64,000 bases of DNA. It comes from Burkholderiales bacterium. GTDB lineage: Bacteria > Pseudomonadota > Gammaproteobacteria > Burkholderiales > SG8-39. The stretch spans positions 4,658 to 68,657 of the forward strand of contig JAXMFT010000001.1 of NCBI GenBank assembly GCA_046347635.1, read 5' to 3'. Positions 36,840-49,651 of the stretch are shown here, one piece after another (within the stretch, counting starts at the first letter, position 1; each line of letters starts with the position of its first letter). The translations under genes and the position numbers were made by a program. The notes under the pieces were generated by a model. That model was given only the letters and a program-made list of their open reading frames with translations. It was not told where the DNA came from and did not search any database.

Positions 36840-38540
36840 TCAGGGCAGGTAGCCGGGAATCGCGCTCTCCTCGACCGCGTCGATCTGGTCCGGGTCGAGG
36901 AACTGCTCGGCGTACTTCATGTACACCCTGCGGCGGATGAACACGTCGAAGAGGTCCGGGTCGATGTGCCCGTTCAGCTTGAACTTGCCGAGGATGTGCA
37001 GCGACTCGGACAGCGTCTTGCCCTTCTTGTAGGGCCGGTCCTTGGCGGTGAGCGCCTCGAAGATGTCGGCGATCCCCATGACGCGCGCCTGCACCGACAT
37101 CTGCTCGCGCCGCAGTCCCCGCGGGTAGCCCTTCCCGTCCATGCGCTCGTGGTGGCCGCCGGCGTACTCGGGCACGCTGCGCAGGTGCTTCGGCCACGGC
37201 AGCGCCTCGAGCATCTTGATGGTCGAGACGATGTGGTGGTTGATCACCTCGCGCTCCTCCTGCGTGAGCGTGCCGCGCTGGATCGTGAGGTTCTTCAGCT
37301 CGTCGTCGGTGAGGAAGTTCGCGGTGTTGCCGACCGGGTCGCGCCACTTGTACATGAGCCCGATCTGCTGCACGCGCTCCTGGTCGTCCTTCGACATCGA
37401 CTCGGCGCCCACGTTGCAGCGGCGCAGGAACGTGCGGTCGTCCTCGATCTGGCGCAGCGTGTCGCGCAGCTCCTCGTCGATCTGGTAGCTGCGCTCGCGC
37501 CGGTTGATCTCCTCCATGCCGCTCGTGCGCGCGAGCTCGAGCTTGCGGTTGAGCGCGTCGATCTCCGCGTCGCGCTTGAGCACCTCGAAGCGGGTGTCGA
37601 TCAGGTGGATGCGGTCGTAGATGGTCTCGAGCTTGGTGGCCTTGTCGACCACGTGCACCGGCGTGGTGATCTTGCCGCAGTCGTGCAGCAGCCCGGCGAT
37701 GCGCAGCTCGTAGCGGTCCTTCTCGGTCATCGTGAAGTCGGCGAGCGGCCCGTCCGTGGTGTCGTTCACCGCCTCGGCCAGCATCATCGTGAGCTGCGGC
37801 ACGCGCTGGCAGTGCCCGCCGGTGTAGGGCGACTTCTCGTCGATCGCCTCGTTGATCATGCGGATGAACGACTCGAACAGGGTCTCGAGCTGCACGATCA
37901 GCGCGCGGTTGGTGAGCGCGATCGCCGCCTGCGAGCCGAGCGACTCGGCCAGGCGCTGGTCGGAGGTGGAGAACGGCACGATCTCGCCGCTGACCGGGTC
38001 CTGGCAGTTGATGAGCTGCAGGACGCCGATGATCTCGCCCTCGTGGTTGCGCATCGGCACGGTGAGGAACGACTTCGACCGGTAGCCGGTCTTCTGGTCG
38101 AACTGGCGCGTGCCGGAGAAGTCGAACCCGACCTCGGTGTACGCGTCGGCGATGTTGACCGTCTGGCCGGTGAGCGCCGCGAACGCGGCCACCATCGAGG
38201 TGTTCGGGTCCCCGTCGACGTACAGCCGGATCGGGTAGAACGGGATCGCGTTGCCGGTCGTCCCGCCCAGCGCGATGTCGAGCGAGGCGGTGCGCACGAT
38301 CTCGAAGCGCAGCTGCTGCGCCTCGCCCTCGCCCTCGATCAGGTACAGCGTCCCGCCGTCGGCGCGCGTGATCGTCTTGGCGGCGACCAGGATCTTCTCG
38401 AGCAGCGCGTTGAGGTTCTTCTCGAGCGAGAGCGCCGCCCCGATCTCGTTCAGCTGCTCGAGGCGGCGCAGCCAGTCCTCGCTCGCGGCGGCGGCGCCGT
38501 AGCCGGGCCGCCCGGGGGCGCTCTGGGGCAGGCTGCTCAT
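36840..38540 (-). CDS. GAF domain - HD-GYP domain protein (putative c-di-GMP phosphodiesterase)
   Basis: N-terminal GAF (..GGTLYLIE.., ..SFLTVPMRNHEGEIIGVLQLIN). C-terminal HD-GYP (LLHDCGK .. GGHHERMDGKGYPRG). Confidence 0.88.
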   Translation of the reverse strand: MSSLPQSAPGRPGYGAAAASEDWLRRLEQLNEIGAALSLEKNLNALLEKILVAAKTITRADGGTLYLIEGEGEAQQLRFEIVRTASLDIALGGTTGNAIPFYPIRLYVDGDPNTSMVAAFAALTGQTVNIADAYTEVGFDFSGTRQFDQKTGYRSKSFLTVPMRNHEGEIIGVLQLINCQDPVSGEIVPFSTSDQRLAESLGSQAAIALTNRALIVQLETLFESFIRMINEAIDEKSPYTGGHCQRVPQLTMMLAEAVNDTTDGPLADFTMTEKDRYELRIAGLLHDCGKITTPVHVVDKATKLETIYDRIHLIDTRFEVLKRDAEIDALNRKLELARTSGMEEINRRERSYQIDEELRDTLRQIEDDRTFLRRCNVGAESMSKDDQERVQQIGLMYKWRDPVGNTANFLTDDELKNLTIQRGTLTQEEREVINHHIVSTIKMLEALPWPKHLRSVPEYAGGHHERMDGKGYPRGLRREQMSVQARVMGIADIFEALTAKDRPYKKGKTLSESLHILGKFKLNGHIDPDLFDVFIRRRVYMKYAEQFLDPDQIDAVEESAIPGYLP

Positions 38541-38553
38541 CGGCGCGCCCGCC

Positions 38554-47088: not shown

Positions 47089-47092
47089 CGCC

Positions 47093-49651
47093 TCAGAGCG
47101 AGATGTCGACGTCGCGCTGGCGCGCACCGGCCCCGCTCACGCACTGCCGCAGCGCCTGGGCGAACGCCTCGCCGGTCTGGAACCGCGCGTCGGCGTCCTT
47201 CGCCATCGCGCGCTCGAGGAACGCCGCGAGCGCCGGCGGCACGGCGGGGTTGCGCCGCAGGATGTCCGGCGCCGGCTCGTTCGCGATCCTGAACATGAGC
47301 TGGGCCATCGACTCGCCCTCGAACGGGAGGTGCCCGCACAGCAGCTGGTACAGGCTGGCGGCGAGCGAGAAGAGGTCCGAGCGCCCGTCGATCTTCTTCC
47401 CGGCGAGCTGCTCGGGCGACATGTAGGAGGGGGTGCCGAGCACCATGCCGGTCTTGGTCTTGGACGCGTCGGTGATGCGCGCGATGCCGAAGTCGGTCAC
47501 CTTCACGGTGTCGGACTGCGGCTCGTACATGATGTTCGCCGGCTTCACGTCGCGGTGGACGACGTTCTGCCGGTGCGCGTAGCCGAGCGCCTCGGCCACG
47601 CGCGCGACGATCGACACCACCCGGTCGGGCGGCAGCAGGGCGCCCGGCTTGGTGTACGGCGCGAGGTCCCGTCCCTGCAGGAACTCCATCGCGATGTAGG
47701 CGAGGTCGTGCTCCTCCCCGGCGTCGAAGATCGTCACGATGTTGGGGTGGTTGAGGCGCCCGGCGGTCTCGGCCTCGCGGAAGAAGCGCGCCTTCACGTC
47801 GGCCAGCTCGTCGGCCTCGAACTCCTGCGCGAGCGCCATGGTCTTGATCGCCACCACGCGCCCGATCTTCGGGTCCTTGCCCTGGTACACCACGCCCATC
47901 GCGCCCTTGCCGAGCTCCTTCTCGACCTGGTAGCGGCCGAGCATCGGCTTCTCGACCGCGTCGGCGGTGAGGATGCTCGTGTTGGTGCGCGCGGCGCCGC
48001 CGCCGAGGATGACGGTCTCCGAGAGCTGCTTCGCGCGCGCGACCTTCTGGCCGACGTCGCGGTACTTGGGGTTGCGCTCGGCGACGTAGCGGAAGACGTT
48101 CTCCGCCTTGTTGAACTGGCGCTTGCGCTCGAAGTCGAGCGCGAGGTTGTACAGGTTGTCGAGCAGCGTGTCGTCGACCGGGCACTTGCGGAAGTAGTCG
48201 AACGCCATGTCGAGCTGCCCCTGGCCCTGGAACGCGAGCCCGAGCATGCGGTTGGACGCGGCCGACTCGGCCTCGGACTTCTCCTTGCCCTCCTCGGTGA
48301 CGAGGAAGCGCTTGGTGGTGAGGGCCACGTGGCCGAGCACGAGCAGGACCGCCGGCAGCATGAGCTGGAGCCACAGGCCCTTGCCCGCCATGAGCGCAAA
48401 GTGCGTCCCGACGATCGCCGCCAGCAGCAGCGCGGTGACCGCCGCGCCCATCCCGGCCTTCAGGCGCGGCAGGGCGGCGATCAGGTAGAGCGCGACCAGC
48501 AGGTAGACGCCGTACTCCGCCCAGACCGCCCAGGCCGGAACGACGAAGAAATGCTCCTGCAGGATCGAGGACACCGAGTGCGCGAGCGTGAGCACCGGGG
48601 CCATCGCGGGCGAGACCGGCGTGACCGACGCGGTGCCCAGCCCGGGGGCGGTGGGGCCCACCAGGACGATCTTGTCCTTGTAGCGGTCGGCCGGGATCTT
48701 CCCGGAGTACACGTCGAAGAACGAATCGACCGGGAAGGCCGGCCGGCCGTCCCGGTCCTTGTAGAAGTACGTGTACATCTGCAGCCGCGGATCGGTGGTG
48801 ATGCGCAGGTTCGCGAGGCTCACGCCTTCGCCGAGCGCGACCTTGATGTCGCCCGGCCCGAGGTTGAGACTGCGGGCCGCGATCAGCATCGACAGCGACG
48901 GATAGAGCTGGTCGAAGTGCGCGAGGACGAGCGGCTCGGAGCGGATCCCGCCGTCCACGTCGACGCGCGCGTTGAGGTGCCCGACGCCGGCGGTGGCGCG
49001 GCCGAGCGCGTCGACCGGGAACACGACGTCGGCCGCGGTCGTGAACGGCGTCTCCGCCCCGTCCCCCTGGACGTTCGCGAGGGCGTTGCGGGTGACGAAG
49101 TCGGGCAGCGGCCGGTCCGGCTTGCCGCGCGCCTCGCCGAGCGAGAACAGCATCGGCAGCAGCACGTTGCCGGCCTTGGCATAGCTCGCGGCGAGCTTGC
49201 GGTCGGTGTCGAGGGCGCCTTCGGCCTCCTGGAGCAGCGCGCCCATCTGCGCGAGCGGAGAGCCGGGTTCGGCCGCGGCGGCGGGGTCGGCCAGGAGCTT
49301 GCGGTACTCGCCGTCGAGCTTGCGGATGTACGCGAGTCCGGGGTCGATCTGGGGCTCGGTGAAGAACACGAGGTTGCCGACCACCTTGGCCCTGCCGGCG
49401 GTCAGGGTCTCGGTCAGCCGCGCGTGGACGTCGCGCGACCAGGGCCAGCGCCCGATGTTGCGCAGGCTCGCCTCGTCGATCGCGATCACCGCGATGCGGT
49501 CGGAGGGCGTCCGGTCGGTCGCGCGCACGCCCATGTCGTAGGCCTTGCGCTCGAGGCTCTGGATGAGATCGGAACCGGCGAGAAAGAGCAGCCCCACGGC
49601 CAGAACGAGGCCGAGCAGCCAGTCCCTTTTCCAGAATCCCGCCTTGCTCAC
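47093..49651 (-). CDS. CHASE2 sensor - TM - TPR-like - Hanks-type Ser/Thr protein kinase
   Basis: N-terminal CHASE2 (..IAIDEASL..GRWPWSRD..), TM helices, C-terminal kinase (GKGAMGVVY, HRDVKPANIM, DFGIAR, GTPSYMSPE). Confidence 0.9.
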   Translation of the reverse strand: MSKAGFWKRDWLLGLVLAVGLLFLAGSDLIQSLERKAYDMGVRATDRTPSDRIAVIAIDEASLRNIGRWPWSRDVHARLTETLTAGRAKVVGNLVFFTEPQIDPGLAYIRKLDGEYRKLLADPAAAAEPGSPLAQMGALLQEAEGALDTDRKLAASYAKAGNVLLPMLFSLGEARGKPDRPLPDFVTRNALANVQGDGAETPFTTAADVVFPVDALGRATAGVGHLNARVDVDGGIRSEPLVLAHFDQLYPSLSMLIAARSLNLGPGDIKVALGEGVSLANLRITTDPRLQMYTYFYKDRDGRPAFPVDSFFDVYSGKIPADRYKDKIVLVGPTAPGLGTASVTPVSPAMAPVLTLAHSVSSILQEHFFVVPAWAVWAEYGVYLLVALYLIAALPRLKAGMGAAVTALLLAAIVGTHFALMAGKGLWLQLMLPAVLLVLGHVALTTKRFLVTEEGKEKSEAESAASNRMLGLAFQGQGQLDMAFDYFRKCPVDDTLLDNLYNLALDFERKRQFNKAENVFRYVAERNPKYRDVGQKVARAKQLSETVILGGGAARTNTSILTADAVEKPMLGRYQVEKELGKGAMGVVYQGKDPKIGRVVAIKTMALAQEFEADELADVKARFFREAETAGRLNHPNIVTIFDAGEEHDLAYIAMEFLQGRDLAPYTKPGALLPPDRVVSIVARVAEALGYAHRQNVVHRDVKPANIMYEPQSDTVKVTDFGIARITDASKTKTGMVLGTPSYMSPEQLAGKKIDGRSDLFSLAASLYQLLCGHLPFEGESMAQLMFRIANEPAPDILRRNPAVPPALAAFLERAMAKDADARFQTGEAFAQALRQCVSGAGARQRDVDISL

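Follow-up and report, generated by a model that had tools for sequence, protein, structure and literature searches.

The DNA analyzed here (the window) is a stretch of 64,000 nt with ~70% G+C from contig JAXMFT010000001.1 of a Burkholderiales bacterium. Between positions 36840 and 49651 it carries a block of eight signalling genes (G1 to G8, Table 1), which on balance we regard as probably a betaproteobacterial type IVa pilus (T4aP) control locus. Enzymes carrying the CHASE2 sensor would set the level of cyclic AMP (cAMP) and of threonine phosphorylation, and cAMP would be read by the GAF domains of two proteins, the PilB-like ATPase G7 and the HD-GYP protein G8. The gene content of the block, its domains, the conservation of its catalytic and ligand-contact residues, its synteny, its linkage to pilA and, in three metagenome-assembled genomes (MAGs), the linkage of a G7-type gene to pilC-pilD were all observed and are described below.

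The original prediction, made from the sequence without database searches, had listed eight genes on one strand with particular domains, and Pfam searches at the gathering cut-offs agreed for all eight proteins. The eight open reading frames (ORFs) had a G+C content at third codon positions (GC3) of 0.92-0.99 and the codon-position bias typical of real genes. Family membership was judged by NCBIfam equivalog cut-offs, and structural relatives were sought among all sequences of the Protein Data Bank (PDB). Conservation was read from alignments of 80 sequences for G7, 63 for G8, 54 for G4, 64 for G5 and 36 for G1.

An ortholog scan of genomes seeded with G7 gave at least 594 confirmed relatives, and the best 80 loci, 65-92% identical to G7, were analyzed. 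The eight window proteins were mapped onto these loci by tblastn, and the 48 loci with sufficient flank were taken as fully covered. G1-G5, G7 and G8 were found in the same order and strand in 28 of the 48, all from other species, and 14 of these also had G6; the remaining 20 loci held mostly subsets of the block. Because the same genes recur in this arrangement while the flanks differ, the block is more than a chance association, and the co-conservation that the original prediction had put forward for checking was borne out. The order was kept over several families at 50-75% protein identity. Carriers among the best 80 loci were Burkholderiales MAGs, Rhodocyclaceae (Propionivibrio, Sulfuritalea, Methyloversatilis, Sterolibacterium), Gallionella, Sideroxydans, Nitrosomonadales, Sulfuricella, Noviherbaspirillum, Herminiimonas and Methylophilaceae.

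Some loci departed from the full arrangement. In four rearranged Noviherbaspirillum-type loci (L032, L052, L071, L073), which lacked the kinase, PP2C and FHA genes, homologs of the cyclase, HD-GYP and phosphodiesterase (PDE) genes (38-61% identity) were directly upstream of G7 on the opposite strand. In five loci (L001, L002, L029, L033, L053) both CHASE2 enzymes had been lost together, and this repeated joint loss suggests that the two CHASE2 sensors work together. The description of the block as a self-contained set holds for the full loci, but L001 and L002 have deleted both CHASE2 enzymes, and G6 occurs in about half of the related loci. Gene remnants were seen in L001 (5741-5881, the first 47 codons of G1, and 7646-7957, the last 104 codons of G4) and in L002 (5774-5968, the first ~62 codons of the kinase gene only).

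Clustering of the flanking ORFs of the 80 loci gave a single broadly conserved neighbor, a type IV pilin gene, present in 47 loci. Where there was room downstream (58 loci), 31 had a pilin start <1 kb beyond G8 and on its strand, and in 43 a pilin was present anywhere in the downstream flank; in several loci a tandem pair of pilin genes followed G8. The pilin gene of the window, which the original prediction had overlooked, shares the strand of G8 and lies 6.4 kb downstream of it. Its product is a typical T4a major pilin, with the leader MQRIQKG followed by FTLIELM and a C-terminal Cys pair (disulfide loop).

The context of the platform gene pilC was examined in 80 pilC-seeded loci (L241-L320). 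A canonical pilB (569 amino acids (aa), 36-41% identical to G7) was upstream of pilC in 28 of them. In three loci, all MAGs (L266, L273, L296), the C-terminus of a G7-type ATPase was directly upstream of pilC-pilD, an adjacency not visible from the window; this ATPase was 71-72% identical to G7 and 34-39% identical to canonical PilB. No pilB was found within at least 2 kb upstream in 44 loci (Gallionellaceae, Sideroxydans, Nitrosomonas, Nitrotoga, Ferrigenium), one locus (L277) had a 38-codon remnant of canonical pilB at 4707-4820, and the upstream sequence was too short to judge in the other four. The Gallionellaceae assembly JAIELH01 had both G7 (L040) and a pilC-pilD cluster without pilB (L255). 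The Nitrosomonas record NZ_CP091134.1 had pilC-pilD and no pilB, and G5, G7 and G8 were present on the Nitrosomonadaceae chromosome OZ242188.1. The adjacent pilin and the adjacency to pilC-pilD suggest that the motor belongs with type IV pili and is not an orphan. In Methylophilaceae (L069, L081-L126), pilD alone was found beside coaE-zapD, with the G7-type gene ~6 kb downstream.

The true start of G7 is the ATG at 40920, which gives a protein of the same length as its orthologs. G7 has intact Walker A, Asp box/Walker B and His box motifs, together with a tetracysteine Zn motif of the type seen in PilB/GspE extension ATPases; GPTGSGKTT, DPDIIMVGEMRD, TGHLVFATLHTN and the CxxC...CxxC motif were conserved over the 80 sequences. 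The best solved relatives were M. xanthus PilB, Thermus PilF and Geobacter PilB, all ahead of Vibrio GspE, and the identity to canonical betaproteobacterial PilB was 36-41% over the ATPase part. G7 scored below the NCBIfam equivalog cut-offs of both PilB (TIGR02538, 481.7 bits versus 675.65) and GspE (TIGR02533, 444.8 bits versus 630.25). No gsp genes were found in the window or among the conserved flanking clusters of the best 80 loci. The original prediction had raised the ordinary GspE of a gsp cluster as the identity that would speak against it; this was rejected on the score and the missing gsp cluster, and G7 belongs to an orthologous group of its own that bears a GAF domain. G7 is thus a distinct PilB paralog that appears tied to T4aP genes. 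Database sources name it only 'GspE/PulE family protein' or 'ATPase, T2SS/T4P/T4SS family', and the names of the 120 best database matches were all generic.

A more distant search with the GAF-MshEN half of G7, made against 1.84 billion cluster representatives (50% identity clusters), matched 234 clusters at an E-value of 1e-30 or better. Among them were full-length GAF-MshEN-T2SSE proteins at 28-48% identity, and also versions with two or three GAF domains. From these distant matches, the GAF-MshEN-T2SSE fusion is widespread beyond this clade. The cluster representatives P0154, P0157 and P0159 have two or three GAF domains in tandem ahead of MshEN-T2SSE, and P0121 (1003 aa) matched the query in seven stretches.

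The messenger was judged from G4, whose catalytic domain had Synechocystis Cya2 and P. aeruginosa CyaB (3r5g) as best PDB relatives. Class IIIb adenylate cyclases have two metal-binding Asp residues, a substrate-specifying Lys and Thr (Glu/Cys or Glu/Gly in guanylate cyclases) and a transition-state Asn/Arg pair. G4 has the homology domain and the Lys/Thr pair of this class: Lys530 (TLDKYMGD) and Thr604 (KAYTVMGD, KAYTVMGDAVNLASR) are as in CyaB and were invariant in 54 of 54 orthologs. In the same alignment Cya2, which we take to be a guanylate cyclase, has Glu and Gly at these two positions. Since the Lys/Thr pair is invariant, the product of G4 is expected, by class III cyclase rules, to be cAMP, which would narrow to one messenger the cyclic mononucleotide to which the block had been assigned.

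G5 is predicted to be a class II cyclic-nucleotide phosphodiesterase. It scored 56.2 bits with the Pfam PDEase_II model (cut-off 23.7) and has the class II HxHLDH motif, as THSHLDH conserved in 64 sequences; the match to the NCBIfam model of cyclic-nucleotide-degrading PDEs was weak (39.7 versus a cut-off of 400). It has no signal peptide and was read as cytoplasmic. In G6 the second cyclic nucleotide-binding (CNB) domain is canonical (FGEEAL...RNATV), with an invariant FGEEAL...R.A cassette, and the rhodanese domain keeps the catalytic Cys322 in the ortholog alignment. The N-terminal 125 aa form a divergent CNB fold with a non-canonical phosphate-binding cassette, which was detected only by a profile of the orthologs against PDB CNB domains (PKG, Epac, DNR; E-values of 4e-6 to 1e-2). 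We propose that G6 may act as an accessory or optional further cAMP receptor.

The GAF domain of G7 had its best PDB match in the cAMP-bound tandem GAF of Anabaena CyaB2 (1ykd, E-value 3e-24), followed by PmGH (4mcw), PDE10A, PDE2A and PDE5; that of G8 had its best match in PDE5 GAF-A (7e-17), followed by CyaB2 and PmGH. The segment aligned to residues 481-492 of PDE2A GAF-B reads VDKRTGYRT in G7 and FDQKTGYRS in G8. We take D485, T488 and T492 of PDE2A GAF-B to be its cGMP contacts. The equivalent positions, D129/T132/T136 of G7 (80 sequences) and D148/T151/S155 of G8 (63 sequences), were at least 90% conserved. By PDB ranking and these contact positions, both GAF domains are predicted to belong to the cyclic nucleoside monophosphate (cNMP)-binding subfamily (PDE2/5/6/10, CyaB1/2), in agreement with the cyclic-nucleotide type first assigned to them, and from the residues conserved we infer that both may bind cAMP. 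CyaB2 and the mammalian PDE2/5/10 GAF domains are the closest solved relatives and share the D..TG[YF][RK][TS] contact segment; they are tandem domains, whereas G7 and G8 each have a single GAF, fused to the PilB-like ATPase or to HD-GYP, and retain the NKFDE motif only partly.

G8 has the GAF-HD-GYP architecture of PmGH and Tlr0485. Its HD and HHExxDGxGYP motifs are intact, LLHDCGK and GGHHERMDGKGYP being invariant or nearly so over the 63 sequences, and it is predicted to be an HD-GYP phosphodiesterase. PmGH was also a top PDB match for both GAF domains. G8 differs from these proteins in being betaproteobacterial, in an insert of ~100 aa inside HD-GYP and in its fixed position beside the GAF-PilB and cAMP-turnover genes. 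Two proteins, Tlr0485 and GacB, were considered in reading its function, and the second has the architecture GAF-GGDEF. In the literature, Tlr0485 is given as a GAF-HD-GYP activated by cAMP (a 2020 study cited in PMC10124867; Galperin and Chou, preprint 10.1101/2021.11.05.467447) and GacB as a Hypr GGDEF enzyme activated by cAMP. By analogy, cross-talk from cAMP to cyclic di-GMP (c-di-GMP) is the most likely reading of G8.

G1 to G3 form a kinase/PP2C/FHA triad that has the active-site and phosphothreonine (pThr)-binding motifs of such systems, the latter in G3 in the N-terminal FHA domain only. G1 is a membrane protein whose N-terminal CHASE2 domain lies outside the cytoplasm; besides its transmembrane segments it has two TPR-like repeats and a kinase domain of the Hanks type with the VAIK, HRD, DFG and SPE motifs (conservation over 36 sequences). 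The CHASE2 sensor had been said to occur in two of the proteins, and G1 and G4 both pass PF05226 (172 and 182 bits, cut-off 26.3); the two sensors are 30% identical over ~380 aa and are flanked by transmembrane segments, which were judged by eye from the sequence. G2 passes the NCBIfam Stp1 model NF033484 (253 bits, cut-off 230) and has the metal-binding Asp.

G3 gave partial NCBIfam matches to FhaB/FipA and TagH, and its N-terminal FHA domain retains the Gly-Arg, Ser-x-x-His and Ser-Thr-Asn residues that bind pThr. In the ortholog alignment this domain is followed directly by an invariant D-F-E-K-T110-M-V-L-R and then by a variable linker rich in Pro, Ala, Ser and Gln. The C-terminal 90 aa had no Pfam match, and a profile search of the PDB gave nothing meaningful for them, but they aligned to the N-terminal FHA of G3 itself (hhalign probability 91%, E-value 1e-6) and are a conserved domain. 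In this FHA-like domain the Ser-x-x-His loop is missing and Lys replaces the Arg; the domain is therefore degenerate and probably does not bind phosphopeptides. Among the finer domain calls of the original prediction, the N-terminal FHA and the C-terminal CNB proved canonical, but the second FHA and the first CNB turned out to be degenerate, while the TPR repeats fall below the Pfam gathering cut-off (25.7 versus 27 bits on a sub-sequence). GarA/OdhI and Fha1 are the basis of an analogy by which we propose Thr110 as a candidate phospho-acceptor and intramolecular ligand of the FHA domain.

Put together, the control locus could work as follows. G4 would make cAMP on an extracytoplasmic cue and cytoplasmic G5 would remove it, with G6 as a further receptor in some lineages. 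The GAF domain of G7 would read cAMP directly, G7 being an extension ATPase that would work with the PilC platform and the adjacent pilin, and a rise in cAMP would cause G8 to lower c-di-GMP, as for Tlr0485. The CHASE2-kinase G1 and its antagonist G2 would set threonine phosphorylation, for which Thr110 of G3 is the best candidate target, and, in the manner of PpkA-PppA-Fha1 of H1 type VI secretion, G3 could be an adaptor that acts on the motor or on the cyclase depending on phosphorylation. The direction of the cAMP effect on the ATPase and on HD-GYP, the phospho-target and the pilus phenotype are what we infer.

Several observations weigh against this pilus control reading. The first concern the ligand. 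By eye, the NKFDE motif is kept only in part in G7 and G8, and the GAF domain of PmGH, related to both, has no assigned ligand. The closest relatives of the window, L001 and L002 (92% and 85% identical in G7), are without the cyclase and the kinase, so that the sensors are dispensable. The GAF domains of G7 and G8 could sense a ligand other than cAMP (for example cGMP) or merely dimerise, with cAMP acting through CNB/CRP receptors and the genes being co-regulated neighbors. GAF is a generic sensor fold, all five loci with the joint loss keep G7 and G8 without a cyclase, and the window encodes other CNB proteins (a CRP-like one at 211-894 and a CNB protein at 54040-54666). We nevertheless consider this unlikely, because the top solved relatives of these GAF domains are all cAMP or cGMP binders except PmGH and the Asp/Thr/Thr(Ser) contacts are kept. 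Even in scrambled order, the genes for the cyclase, the PDE and HD-GYP stay linked to G7, and the PDE, which requires a cNMP substrate, is retained where the cyclase has been lost.

The second group concerns the machine. In the window a small convergent gene and TPR/GT41-type glycosyltransferase genes lie between G8 and the pilin gene. There is no pilC, pilD or pilMNOPQ within the window, as the original prediction had already noted for platform, secretin and prepilin peptidase genes. In at least two assemblies G7 coexists with a canonical pilB-pilC(-pilD) cluster: JBBQHP01 has the G7 block (L018) and canonical pilBCD (L267), and DATBRG01 has a G7-type gene (L088) and canonical pilB-pilC (L276). 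Given this coexistence, G7 cannot simply be equated with PilB. The scans seeded with PilC and PilD gave three same-assembly pairs only, and the top-80 loci of canonical PilB and of G7 had no assembly in common; the two lists sample different species.

G7 might accordingly drive another type IV filament machine (one like the type II secretion system, a DNA-uptake pilus or a second adhesive pilus), which the signalling genes would control. The modest identity to canonical PilB, a GspE score nearly equal to the PilB score, the coexistence just described and the two tandem pilin genes after G8 in several loci all fit such a machine. On the other side, no gsp, msh, tad or com genes were conserved in the flanks of the 80 loci, the adjacent pilin has the short leader and C-terminal disulfide loop of a typical T4a major pilin, and in the three MAGs a G7-type gene occupies the pilB position upstream of a T4aP-type pilC-pilD. 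On this evidence a separate machine seems rather improbable.

Two further points count against the control locus. A relaxed form of the tandem 24-residue MshEN motif for c-di-GMP, [RKPN]hGxxhhxx[GAS]hhxxxxhxxxhxx[QNKRYWST] (Wang et al. 2016, PMC5013675), was found in none of 80 G7 orthologs, although five canonical betaproteobacterial PilB proteins were also negative, so that the test had no positive control; a G7 without this motif leaves no obvious route from the c-di-GMP output of G8 to G7. Promoter and terminator scans were uninformative in 70% GC DNA and gave no support for an operon. That independent signalling genes sharing no function have merely been inherited in this order is very improbable: all carriers found belong to one class, so that shared ancestry inflates the counts, and partial versions of the block are common, but the order persists over several families amid unconserved flanks, the intergenic gaps are a few nucleotides, the two CHASE2 enzymes were lost jointly in five lineages and the cAMP genes stayed linked to G7 after rearrangement.

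The pilus control locus that we favor resembles several known systems. P. aeruginosa links cAMP to type IV pili through the class IIIb cyclase CyaB, the phosphodiesterase CpdA and Vfr. The block has in common with this circuit a Lys/Thr cyclase of the same class, a predicted cAMP phosphodiesterase and candidate cAMP receptors linked to type IV pili. In P. aeruginosa, however, the genes are scattered and the effect of cAMP is transcriptional, by way of the CRP-family Vfr, whereas here GAF domains are fused to the motor and to HD-GYP, and a CHASE2 sensor and a class II PDE are included, all in one locus. PpkA-PppA-Fha1 of the P. aeruginosa H1 type VI secretion system and PknB-PstP-FhaA/FhaB of mycobacteria are kinase/PP2C/FHA pathways. 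As in these pathways, the genes of the block for a PP2C phosphatase, an FHA protein and a membrane-bound Hanks kinase that senses outside the cytoplasm stand together beside a machine with a hexameric ATPase; the block differs in the CHASE2 sensor, the degenerate second FHA-like domain, the invariant DFEKTMVLR and the putative type IV pilus motor.

Second messengers control pili through c-di-GMP acting on MshEN, PilZ and FimX, and through cAMP acting on transcription via Vfr or CRP. A cNMP-type GAF on an extension ATPase would be a third, direct route. V. cholerae MshE, whose MshEN domain binds c-di-GMP (PMC5013675), follows the same logic, in that the motor protein itself senses a nucleotide messenger. 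G7 shares with MshE the Walker A/B motifs, the His box, the tetracysteine and the N-terminal MshEN fold; unlike MshE it adds an N-terminal cNMP-type GAF domain, is without the relaxed c-di-GMP motif and falls under the PilB and GspE cut-offs.

The original prediction had not recognized the gene set as a described system, and a search of the accessible literature likewise gave no account of the cluster, of a GAF-PilB fusion, of its fixed pairing with GAF-HD-GYP or of a putative operon that links it to CHASE2-cyclase/PDE and CHASE2-kinase/PP2C/FHA genes beside pilA. Every component family was already known, as was a cAMP-activated GAF-HD-GYP; the GAF-PilB fusion, the fixed pairing and the putative joined operon appear to be new. 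Most of the carriers are uncultured, and they are of environmental importance (Gallionella and Sideroxydans iron oxidisers, Nitrosomonadales, Rhodocyclaceae, soil Burkholderiales); pili are important to them in attachment, in forming biofilms or flocs and in taking up DNA. The locus joins a messenger synthase, a hydrolase, a second, putatively cAMP-regulated enzyme of c-di-GMP and a kinase/phosphatase/FHA switch beside a pilin, which makes for compact testable hypotheses. A broader proposal is that GAF-MshEN-PilB proteins are a large class of extension motors, gated directly by cAMP together with an FHA/Thr-phosphorylation switch, that replace canonical PilB in lineages such as Gallionellaceae and Nitrosomonas, where pilC-pilD clusters are without a neighboring pilB. 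We put this forward only tentatively and hold it to be doubtful. If it were true, iron oxidisers, nitrifiers and many Burkholderiales of soil and water would extend their pili under control of cAMP at the post-translational level.

Table 1. Positions of the block genes and associated features in the window.
Feature	Position	Strand	Evidence or remark
G1 CHASE2-kinase	47093..49651	-	Pfam CHASE2 2e-50, Pkinase 1e-53
G2 PP2C phosphatase, Stp1/IreP family	46157..46981	-	Pfam PP2C_2, PP2C
G3 FHA adaptor	45312..46142	-	Pfam FHA 8e-22
G4 CHASE2 class IIIb adenylate cyclase, membrane	42986..45208	-	Pfam CHASE2, Guanylate_cyc 7e-21
G5 predicted class II cNMP phosphodiesterase, metallo-beta-lactamase (MBL) fold	42196..42966	-	Pfam PDEase_II, Lactamase_B_2
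G6 CNB-like + CNB + rhodanese	41096..42163	-	Pfam cNMP_binding, Rhodanese
G7 GAF-MshEN-T2SSE, PilB-like hexameric ATPase, 788 aa	38554..40920	-	Pfam GAF, MshEN 8e-8, T2SSE
G8 GAF-HD-GYP	36840..38540	-	Pfam HD_5 1.3e-41, GAF 2.5e-15
Duplicated PP2C 5' end, 106 nt	46982..47087	-	window-specific; creates 'uORF' 47087-46978
Promoter-like site TTGACT-18-AAGAAT, with TG	49830..49859	-	consensus match in 324-nt AT-richer spacer upstream of G1
Type IVa major-pilin-like gene	29998..30408	-	Pfam Pilin, N_methyl
TPR/TPR-GT41 gene	20027-22993	-	pilin island
TPR/TPR-GT41 gene	21932-24097	+	pilin island
TPR/TPR-GT41 gene	27636-30080	-	pilin island
TPR/TPR-GT41 gene	30650-32392	-	pilin island
TPR/TPR-GT41 gene	34724-36433	-	pilin island
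Methyltransferase	19022-20026		pilin island
Weak GT8-like ORF	32393-33259		pilin island

The gaps between the eight genes were remeasured in the window at 13-175 nt, and the short upstream ORF ('uORF') begins 4 nt past the stop of G1, which confirms the tight spacing first described. Across loci the median gaps were 5-20 nt inside G1-G2-G3, G4-G5-G6 and G7-G8, and 51-98 nt between these groups; this pattern suggests three tightly (translationally) coupled sub-modules. One transcript for the whole block is plausible. The promoter-like site upstream of G1 is a possible operon start; such sites numbered 2 in the scanned region versus 0.6 expected, as consensus matches only in 70% GC DNA. An Rfam scan of the window from 27 to 51 kb gave no match at E-values up to 0.1.

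The 'uORF' of 36 codons, which the original prediction had counted in the block, does exist as an ORF but is a copy of the start of the PP2C gene and not a conserved element. Within it, 47 nt repeat the first 16 codons of G2 almost perfectly (2 mismatches); its frame closes on the ATGA of the true G2 start, so that its stop overlaps the G2 ATG. The duplication was absent from the 34 other loci holding both G1 and G2, where the gap between the two genes had a median of 9 nt (range from a 4-nt overlap to 68 nt; 4-5 nt in closer relatives). Since no other such locus has it, it is a recent duplication scar, and a conserved leader peptide was rejected.

Downstream of G8, a convergent plus-strand gene at 36470-36817 (~115 aa) belongs to no Pfam family, but 14 loci conserve it downstream of the block. 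Its shadow on the minus strand, the ORF at 36541-36714, was rejected as a gene.

The pilin gene itself lies in a dense island (19022-36433) of TPR and TPR-GT41 (O-GlcNAc-transferase (OGT)-like) glycosyltransferase genes on both strands. In other loci, too, the pilin has similar TPR/OGT-like genes and an O-antigen-ligase-like gene for company, and the glycosyltransferases of the island may serve pilin glycosylation. Two overlapping minus-strand ORFs, 33096-35966 and 34724-36433, are in different frames; each matches TPR families, and in related loci both hit the same regions. The stretch 33259-34724 could be either a frameshift or two TPR genes.

Upstream of G1, window positions 49976-54027 encode a CoA-transferase III, a thiamine-diphosphate enzyme and a formyltransferase, which are likely oxalate or formyl-CoA genes. 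This neighborhood was common only to the nearest relatives (L001, L002, L010-L012). The CNB protein at 54040-54666 (208 aa, plus strand) lies 4.4 kb upstream of G1 and was kept in L001 and L002, and the CRP/FNR-type regulator at 211-894 on the minus strand combines CNB with HTH_Crp_2. Farther from the block, the window encodes an ATP sulfurylase (8298-9704) and, at 13919-17251, a SoxA/TsdA cytochrome c and a protein with a 5'-nucleotidase C-terminal domain, which were read as part of a sox cluster.

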